Of a stretch of 64,000 nucleotides of DNA, positions 63,042 to 63,717 are shown in pieces. Under the pieces are notes generated by a model. That model was not told the DNA's origin. It ran no database searches and saw only the letters and a program-made list of their open reading frames with translations. Each line of letters begins with the position of its first letter. The stretch's first letter is position 1. The position numbers and the translations under genes were made by a program. The stretch lies in the NCBI RefSeq assembly GCF_044324875.1, contig NZ_CP172185.1; one strand, given 5' to 3'. The DNA is from Escherichia coli (GTDB lineage: Bacteria; Pseudomonadota; Gammaproteobacteria; Enterobacterales; Enterobacteriaceae).

Positions 63042-63717
63042 CTACGCCGTGATGCCCAGTAAACGTTCTGCATTGCGAAATGCGATGGCCTCTTTTTCAG
63101 CCTTGTTGACGGGCAGACTGTCTATAAAGGTTTTTACACCGTCCAGGGTCTGATAGGGATAATCGACGGAGAACAGGATCCTTTCAGCACCCATTAACGC
63201 GTAGATAAACTGGAAGTGCGGCAGTGTTAGCATATGGCGGGGTAACGTAAACGTGTTCCTGGAAGGTTCTCGTTAGCGTGCGTGACAGACCCGTTGCAGC
63301 CAGTGGTAGGCTGTCATCAAGACGCTGGAGCCAGAAGGGTAACATCTCCCCCCAGTGGCCACTGATTACCTGCAGGTTGGGATATTTATCAAATGCGCCC
63401 GATAACATCAGCCGCAACAAATGGATCCCCGCTTCGTGATGCCAGCCCCAGGCAAACATAGAAAGCCTGGCGTTGACCTCTGCGCTGAAGCCCGTGAAGT
63501 AGGCCTGCTGTACGCTTTTAAGCGGTAACCCGGGATGAAGATAGAGTGGCACATTCAGTTTATTAAAGCGGGAAAGCAGGGAGTCGGTCAGGATTATGAC
63601 CATCAGCGACGGTTTTCCCCCAGTCGCCAAGGAAAGGTGCCTGCTCAAGCGCAACAGGCATACACGCTCGCCCTAACTCGCTGTCGAGATAATGTTCTTC
63701 GAGGCAAATGATTTTCA
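63042..63717 (-). pseudogene. Amidohydrolase-2 family gene with at least two frameshifts
   Basis: Three consecutive overlapping reading frames on the minus strand (from ATG at 63717: MKIICLEEHYLDSELGRA...; 63184-63654; 63042-63233 ending ERILFSVDYPYQ...) together cover one amidohydrolase-2-like protein. Confidence 0.65.

Follow-up and report, generated by a model that had tools for sequence, protein, structure and literature searches.

An amidohydrolase-2 pseudogene with two deletions in an accessory island of Escherichia coli

The minus-strand region at 63042-63718 of the 64,000-nucleotide stretch of E. coli DNA analysed here (the window) is very probably a pseudogene, the remnant of a 344-codon gene of the amidohydrolase decarboxylase branch that resides in a shared island and has been disrupted by two deletions, both of which are real lesions. 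It represents a routine case, a pseudogene from a known enzyme family carried on an accessory island, and the window holds no new biology. Ordinary bacterial pseudogenes of E. coli and Shigella accessory islands display the same combination of a microhomology deletion, a later small indel, allele-specific hits and a neighbouring insertion sequence with target duplication. Set against these, nothing about the locus is unusual, and the only notable aspect is that PGAP reports three proteins instead of one pseudogene.

Three reading frames derived from one gene

In the ORF listing of the window, three minus-strand ORFs overlap in succession (63563-63733, 63184-63654 and 63042-63233). All three derive from a single Amidohydro_2 (PF04909) gene, the resemblance being far beyond chance. 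When an intact 343-residue metagenomic homologue (L008:5944-6975) was used as tblastn query, the three frames aligned colinearly with its residues 1-45, ~165-279 and 281-343; the first segment presents 71% identity (E 1e-20) and the second also 71%, while the second and third have a joint E of 9e-78. The middle ORF matches PF04909 in Pfam with 35.8 bits (E 9.6e-9, profile positions 128-192) and the 3' ORF with 32.3 bits (E 1.1e-7, profile positions 227-289 of 289), both above the gathering score of 26.4 bits, while the 5' ORF alone has no Pfam match. The true start codon of the remnant lies at 63718, and the N-terminus of the 5' ORF, MKIICLEEHY, is typical for the amidohydrolase-2 family. The remnant and its lesions are arranged as follows, in the direction of reading:

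63584-63718, minus strand: fragment 1, ancestral codons 1-45 (MKIICLEEHYLD...GHNPDR), including the E-E-H metal-binding motif
63583-63586, minus strand: junction of the 356-bp deletion, which removes nt 136-491 of the ancestral gene (codons 46-164)
63235-63583, minus strand: fragment 2, ancestral codons ~165-280 (DSLLSRFNKLNVPLYLHPG...GHWGEM...VYVTP), with the LHP and GHWGE motifs kept
between 63234 and 63235, minus strand: 2-bp (GG) deletion, changing ancestral ...CCGTCAGGTATGCTG... to ...CCGCCATATGCTA...
63042-63234, minus strand: fragment 3, ancestral codons 281-344 plus the stop codon (MLTLPHFQFIYALMGAERILFSVDYPYQ...LGITA, stop), with the DYPY metal-ligand Asp motif kept

A sequence-only reading of the window had proposed that the three frames together reconstruct one amidohydrolase-2-like protein. 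The single gene of origin is borne out by the colinear alignment and by the two fragments that pass the PF04909 gathering score; the whole protein is not, as codons 46-164 are deleted and only about two thirds remains. EEH (codons 7-9), YLHPG, SGHWGE and SVDYPY are all readable across the three frames of the window, and the residues that these motifs supply (the N-terminal ExH/HxH, the His of LHP, the His of GHxGE and the Asp of DxPx) would have the roles established for LigW, gamma-RSD and ACMSD. A complete (β/α)8 barrel in one frame (about 320-350 residues) is absent, with codons 46-164 gone and the rest distributed over three frames. Given the known (β/α)8 architecture, the remnant would be unable to fold into a barrel; because about a third of that barrel is missing, it is unlikely that any functional enzyme can be made from it, and the surviving ORFs would be by-products of annotation.

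The 356-bp and 2-bp deletions

The nature of the 5' lesion was revealed by blastn comparison with the orthologous locus of Rahnella rivi (L014), in which positions 1-247 of the query correspond to subject positions 1-247, with 95% identity over the 247 nt up to the junction, and query positions 246-951 to subject positions 602-1311. A 2-nt GA microhomology at 63584-63585 leaves the exact breakpoint ambiguous. Since 356 equals 3 × 118 + 2, the frame is shifted, and past the junction fragment 1 runs through only six out-of-frame codons to a stop (63563-63565). The deletion takes about a third of the TIM barrel; within the amidohydrolase gene this gap is, the 2-bp site aside, the sole such difference from Rahnella. 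Elsewhere in the R. rivi island, about 950 bp of extra sequence without E. coli counterpart separate the quinol monooxygenase gene from the second aldo-keto reductase gene (L014:7307-8260 vs L001:8517).

At the 3' lesion, CAGGTA has become CATA, outside any homopolymer run; in longer context, CCGTCAGGTATG has become CCGCCATATG. The dinucleotide is kept in three and lost in four of seven aligned E. coli alleles, and the three that keep it have a fused 187-residue ORF. GG is also present in Rahnella, and because the GG alleles share nearby bases with Rahnella it represents the ancestral state. A 71-mer across the site, taken from a GG allele, matched 469 genomes, of which 105 are at ≥95% identity and the other 364 at 90-95%. 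Judged from these identity bands, the lower band probably corresponds to the class that lost GG, which would comprise about 78% of the roughly 470 carriers. The loss is polymorphic within E. coli.

The sequence-only reading had called for at least two indels. The count of two lesions agrees with the comparison to Rahnella, but the 5' lesion is a 356-bp deletion and not a small indel. It had also placed the lesions at 63650-63660 and 63190-63230, which is incorrect, as those ranges are the zones where the ORFs overlap and the real sites are 63583-63586 and 63234/63235. A small indel at 63650-63660 was rejected on the same grounds, the true junction lying at 63583-63586.

Intact orthologues and the ancestral enzyme

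Syntenic orthologues were found by scanning species-representative genomes, and the following are intact according to the ORF listing:

L014:4512-5546: Rahnella rivi FC061912-K orthologue, 344 aa, single frame
Pantoea deserta orthologue: 344 aa, single frame
Serratia inhibens orthologue: intact, inside a longer open ORF

In all three species the gene has the same two neighbours, an aldo-keto reductase on one side and an NAD(P)H oxidoreductase on the other. The deleted segment is present in Rahnella, in two species of Pantoea and in two of Serratia, its retention in Pantoea gossypiicola and Serratia plymuthica being judged from blastn colinearity; the Enterobacter sichuanensis locus (L019) was left out of deletion scoring because its contig begins inside the gene. 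The R. rivi orthologue resembles the window copy closely (91-95% identity in DNA, and about 96% in protein where the sequence is retained), and over the first 45 codons a single residue differs. Unlike the window copy, it is intact, in a single frame, and contains both the 356 bp (codons 46-164) and the GG dinucleotide. Relative to this orthologue, found in the same order of aldo-keto reductase, amidohydrolase and oxidoreductase genes, the remnant therefore carries the 356-bp and the 2-bp deletions that identify it as a pseudogene.

Full-length homologues comprise 320-344 residues, match PF04909 in 120 of 120 cases among the matches listed, and align with the solved structures of 3nur, LigW and gamma-resorcylate decarboxylase with E values of 1e-39 to 1e-76. 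For the Rahnella orthologue, the uncharacterised amidohydrolase 3nur aligns over nearly the full length (E 5.7e-69), while LigW 5-carboxyvanillate decarboxylase (PDB 4inf, 4icm), gamma-resorcylate decarboxylase (2dvt, 3s4t) and 2,3-dihydroxybenzoate decarboxylase (6m53) all present E values in the range of about 1e-46 to 1e-37. ACMSD-type decarboxylases share the aligned LHP, GHxGE and DYPY motifs with the intact orthologue; the window copy differs from them in that about a third of the barrel is missing and the frame is broken, so that it is not an enzyme. In the solved structures, the deleted codons 46-164 correspond to conserved parts of the core, such as AND-LA, RF-GFATLP and LGFKG. No NCBIfam model matches the intact orthologue. 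By these alignments the ancestral gene is assigned to the ACMSD/gamma-resorcylate/LigW decarboxylase branch of the amidohydrolase superfamily.

A more distant intact homologue resides in a LysR-linked cluster with aldo-keto reductase, Flavodoxin_2, ABM and SDR genes. This company suggests, but does not show, a role of the cluster in the detoxification of aromatic acids, quinones or carbonyls, and the ancestral enzyme is likely to have acted on an aromatic acid, by decarboxylation or hydration, in a quinone/carbonyl detoxification cluster. Anyone studying the function of this LysR-controlled reductase/decarboxylase cluster would best begin with the intact Rahnella and Pantoea orthologues.

Distribution of the lesions and alternative explanations

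The preferred explanation comprises a short series of events. A 356-bp deletion between 2-nt microhomologies removed codons 46-164 and shifted the frame; a later 2-bp deletion, in a sublineage to which the window belongs, broke what was left of the 3' part in two; some other alleles suffered further damage; and in the strain of the window an additional, private IS100 insertion entered the downstream aldo-keto reductase. The damage in other alleles is as follows: His-9 of the EEH metal motif is replaced in four of ten E. coli alleles (H9N, codon 9 CAT to AAT), and the WP5-S18 allele type combines replacement of the DYPY aspartate (D305G, codon 305 GAT to GGT) with a 1-bp insertion.

The sequence-only reading had raised the possibility of homopolymer sequencing errors, in which case the gene would be intact in the real genome. 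This is refuted by the spread of the lesions, and we regard it as extremely unlikely. A 901-bp query (62900-63800) finds a match in 472 of the 5,426 complete E. coli genomes; 54 are at least 99% identical and, among the matches listed, at least 24 are 100% identical, the hosts of matching genomes including cow, swine, wood-wren and night heron. Both lesions are outside homopolymer runs. The 5' one is a loss of 356 bp and not a slip of 1-2 nt, and blastn with the deleted Rahnella segment, at a sensitivity of about 65-70% identity, found no match in any of the 5,426 complete genomes, while the GG loss is common to about 364 genomes. Because the segment is absent from all of them, the 356-bp deletion appears to be fixed in island-carrying E. 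coli. The formal symmetry of an indel would also allow the short form to be ancestral, with the 356 bp as an insertion in Rahnella, Pantoea and Serratia, but the probability of this is practically nil: the segment encodes conserved motifs of the family, for which 3nur and LigW provide residue-by-residue counterparts, it is found at 55-71% identity in distant full-length homologues (Neisseria, Psittacicella and metagenomes), and without it the reading frame is broken.

A different objection is that the fragments might still function, either as a split or truncated enzyme (a C-terminal half-barrel of 187 or 139 residues) or through programmed ribosomal frameshifting. The ORFs are open long enough for CDS calling, all four motifs (EEH, LHP, GHWGE and DYPY) survive in the window allele, and the dN/dS of the remnant against Rahnella is low (0.08). 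Nevertheless, codons 46-164, which are conserved in all full-length homologues, are missing and frameshifting cannot restore them; other alleles have lost metal ligands (H9N, D305G) or gained a frameshift; all non-E. coli orthologues are single-frame by ORF listing; and a low dN/dS is what would be expected if inactivation were recent. That RefSeq/PGAP annotates the fragments as ordinary CDSs might also be held against a pseudogene, but this reflects ORF calling and not function. Residual function of this kind is therefore very unlikely. Also improbable is the proposal that loss of the decarboxylase was selected and not neutral, or that the C-terminal fragment was kept for a residual role. The case for selected loss is that every island-carrying E. 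coli has the same deletion while most neighbouring reductases are intact; were it correct, the product of the enzyme (e.g. a phenol or a hydroquinone from a hydroxybenzoate) would be harmful in E. coli.

Against Rahnella, dN/dS is about 0.08 for the retained codons of the remnant, computed on the two retained blocks separately, 0.11 for the upstream aldo-keto reductase and 0.19 for the oxidoreductase. As the value for the remnant is low, like those of the flanking genes, most of the divergence would have arisen under purifying selection, which suggests that inactivation is recent relative to the split of the island between E. coli and Rahnella. Within E. coli, variable sites comprise 12 nonsynonymous and 9 synonymous changes in the remnant vs 18 and 21 in the flanking genes (Fisher p = 0.59). 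A McDonald-Kreitman-like contrast on the remnant gave p = 0.012; it is not specific, the within-E. coli counts of the flanking genes (18:21) being similar. Substitution patterns alone thus neither prove nor contradict relaxed constraint, and the evidence that the gene is dead comes from the third of the protein that is missing and from the disabling changes in other alleles.

The accessory island and the IS100 insertion

The remnant belongs to an accessory island of ~7.2 kb that roughly 9% of complete E. coli genomes (472/5,426) carry beside hipBA, between hipA and a truncated HTH gene. In strain C4 the order is hipBA, a LysR regulator, a small hypothetical protein, a DJ-1/PfpI-type protein, an aldo-keto reductase, the three fragments, an NAD(P)H oxidoreductase, a second aldo-keto reductase, a quinol monooxygenase and a carboxymuconolactone-decarboxylase-family protein; beyond the island follow the truncated HTH gene and a ydeQRS-type fimbrial operon. 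The neighbouring features in the window are:

63821-64000, minus strand: 3' end of the upstream aldo-keto reductase (orthologue of WP_000854797.1), truncated where the window ends and placed from the L001 annotation
62320-62892, minus strand: intact NAD(P)H-dependent oxidoreductase of flavodoxin-like fold (PF02525, E 1.1e-40; WP_000789914.1), immediately downstream of the remnant
62127-62317, minus strand: 5' part of the downstream aldo-keto reductase (orthologue of WP_001200459.1); L001 5801-7674 corresponds to window 64000-62127 (megablast)
60173-62126, plus strand: IS100 (IS21 family), 1954 bp, inserted in the downstream aldo-keto reductase
61278-62060, plus strand: istB, 260 aa
60259-61281, plus strand: istA, 340 aa
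59339-60172, minus strand: 3' part of the downstream aldo-keto reductase; L001 7670-12901 corresponds to window 60172-54941 (megablast, 99.9% identity, no gaps)
58498-59193: quinol monooxygenase, downstream of the interrupted aldo-keto reductase
57679-58482: carboxymuconolactone-decarboxylase-family gene

Pfam and RefSeq annotation confirm what had been read from the letters, namely that the remnant is directly upstream of a flavodoxin-fold oxidoreductase and next to an aldo-keto reductase, and place it between two of the latter. The oxidoreductase is KefF/KefG-like, below the equivalog cutoffs (NCBIfam KefF, 149 bits vs 210), and the stretch at 63821-64000 gives a weak PF00248 match (profile positions 246-289 of 291). 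An Rfam scan of 59000-64000 returned no match, and counts of promoter and terminator patterns in scans were at chance level.

The island (54941-64000 in the window) is colinear with loci of R. rivi (L014; about 91% DNA identity), P. deserta (L015; 88-90%) and E. sichuanensis (L019; about 92%). Such identities are much above the expectation between these genera and E. coli. Because they exceed the expected divergence between genera, the island has probably spread horizontally.

The bounds of IS100 coincide with the gap between the two megablast segments, which overlap by 5 bp in L001 at 7670-7674. The element displays the features of IS100: a length of ~1.95 kb, IstA and IstB, terminal inverted repeats with the ends TGTCA...TGACA, and a short target-site duplication, CCATT, at 60168-60172 and 62127-62131. 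RefSeq names its near-identical copies 'IS21-like element IS100 family transposase' and 'IS100kyp family helper ATPase IstB'. The junction between IS100 and the aldo-keto reductase is absent from all other complete genomes searched, and the insertion occurs in this strain alone among them. In strain E700025, IS100 occupies a different site of the same aldo-keto reductase gene, which has thus been struck independently at least twice. Strain EC556 (L013, NZ_AP027440.1 685095-693843) carries ISCro1 (IS66 family) in the interval separating the aldo-keto reductase from a shortened quinol monooxygenase, together with a frameshifted carboxymuconolactone-decarboxylase-family gene, lesions that are absent from the window.

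These observations bear on the suggestion, also made from the letters alone, that the cluster is being inactivated piecemeal by frameshifts and IS insertion. At the population level it is apt, as different strains carry different insertion sequences or frameshifts, IS100 in the present one. It does not hold as a general description, as strain C4 and many others have every island gene except the amidohydrolase annotated as intact, and dN/dS of the flanking genes is low. The amidohydrolase is the one gene that is dead across all carriers.

Annotation of the remnant

RefSeq presents the remnant as three proteins: WP_001327998.1 ('hypothetical protein') is fragment 1, WP_001314733.1 ('amidohydrolase family protein', 63184-63603) corresponds to the region of fragment 2 and WP_001314732.1 ('amidohydrolase family protein', 63042-63194) to that of fragment 3. 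Variants of the fragments have entries of their own (WP_001322415.1, WP_001327999.1 and WP_023153757.1). These three entries and their allelic variants represent one pseudogene, propagated as separate proteins over hundreds of E. coli genomes, and the main value of the present analysis resides in correcting the annotation and describing the lesions precisely. The fixed 356-bp deletion, the polymorphic 2-bp deletion, the private lesions and the IS hits provide lineage markers in island-carrying E. coli. A literature search by RefSeq accession and keyword found no paper on the locus.

Two database entries related to the remnant were also observed. A 161-aa Enterobacter cloacae protein (P0002), 96% identical, has a non-homologous start (MPHFPE) and joins at QAYFTGF, which suggests that in Enterobacter this gene was truncated at its N-terminus or rearranged in a different way. 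The 3.6-kb contig JAIJJM010000311.1 (L021), labelled as MAG: Collinsella sp., shares 98.7% identity with the island of E. coli, the deleted amidohydrolase included, and is almost certainly E. coli contamination of a metagenome bin.
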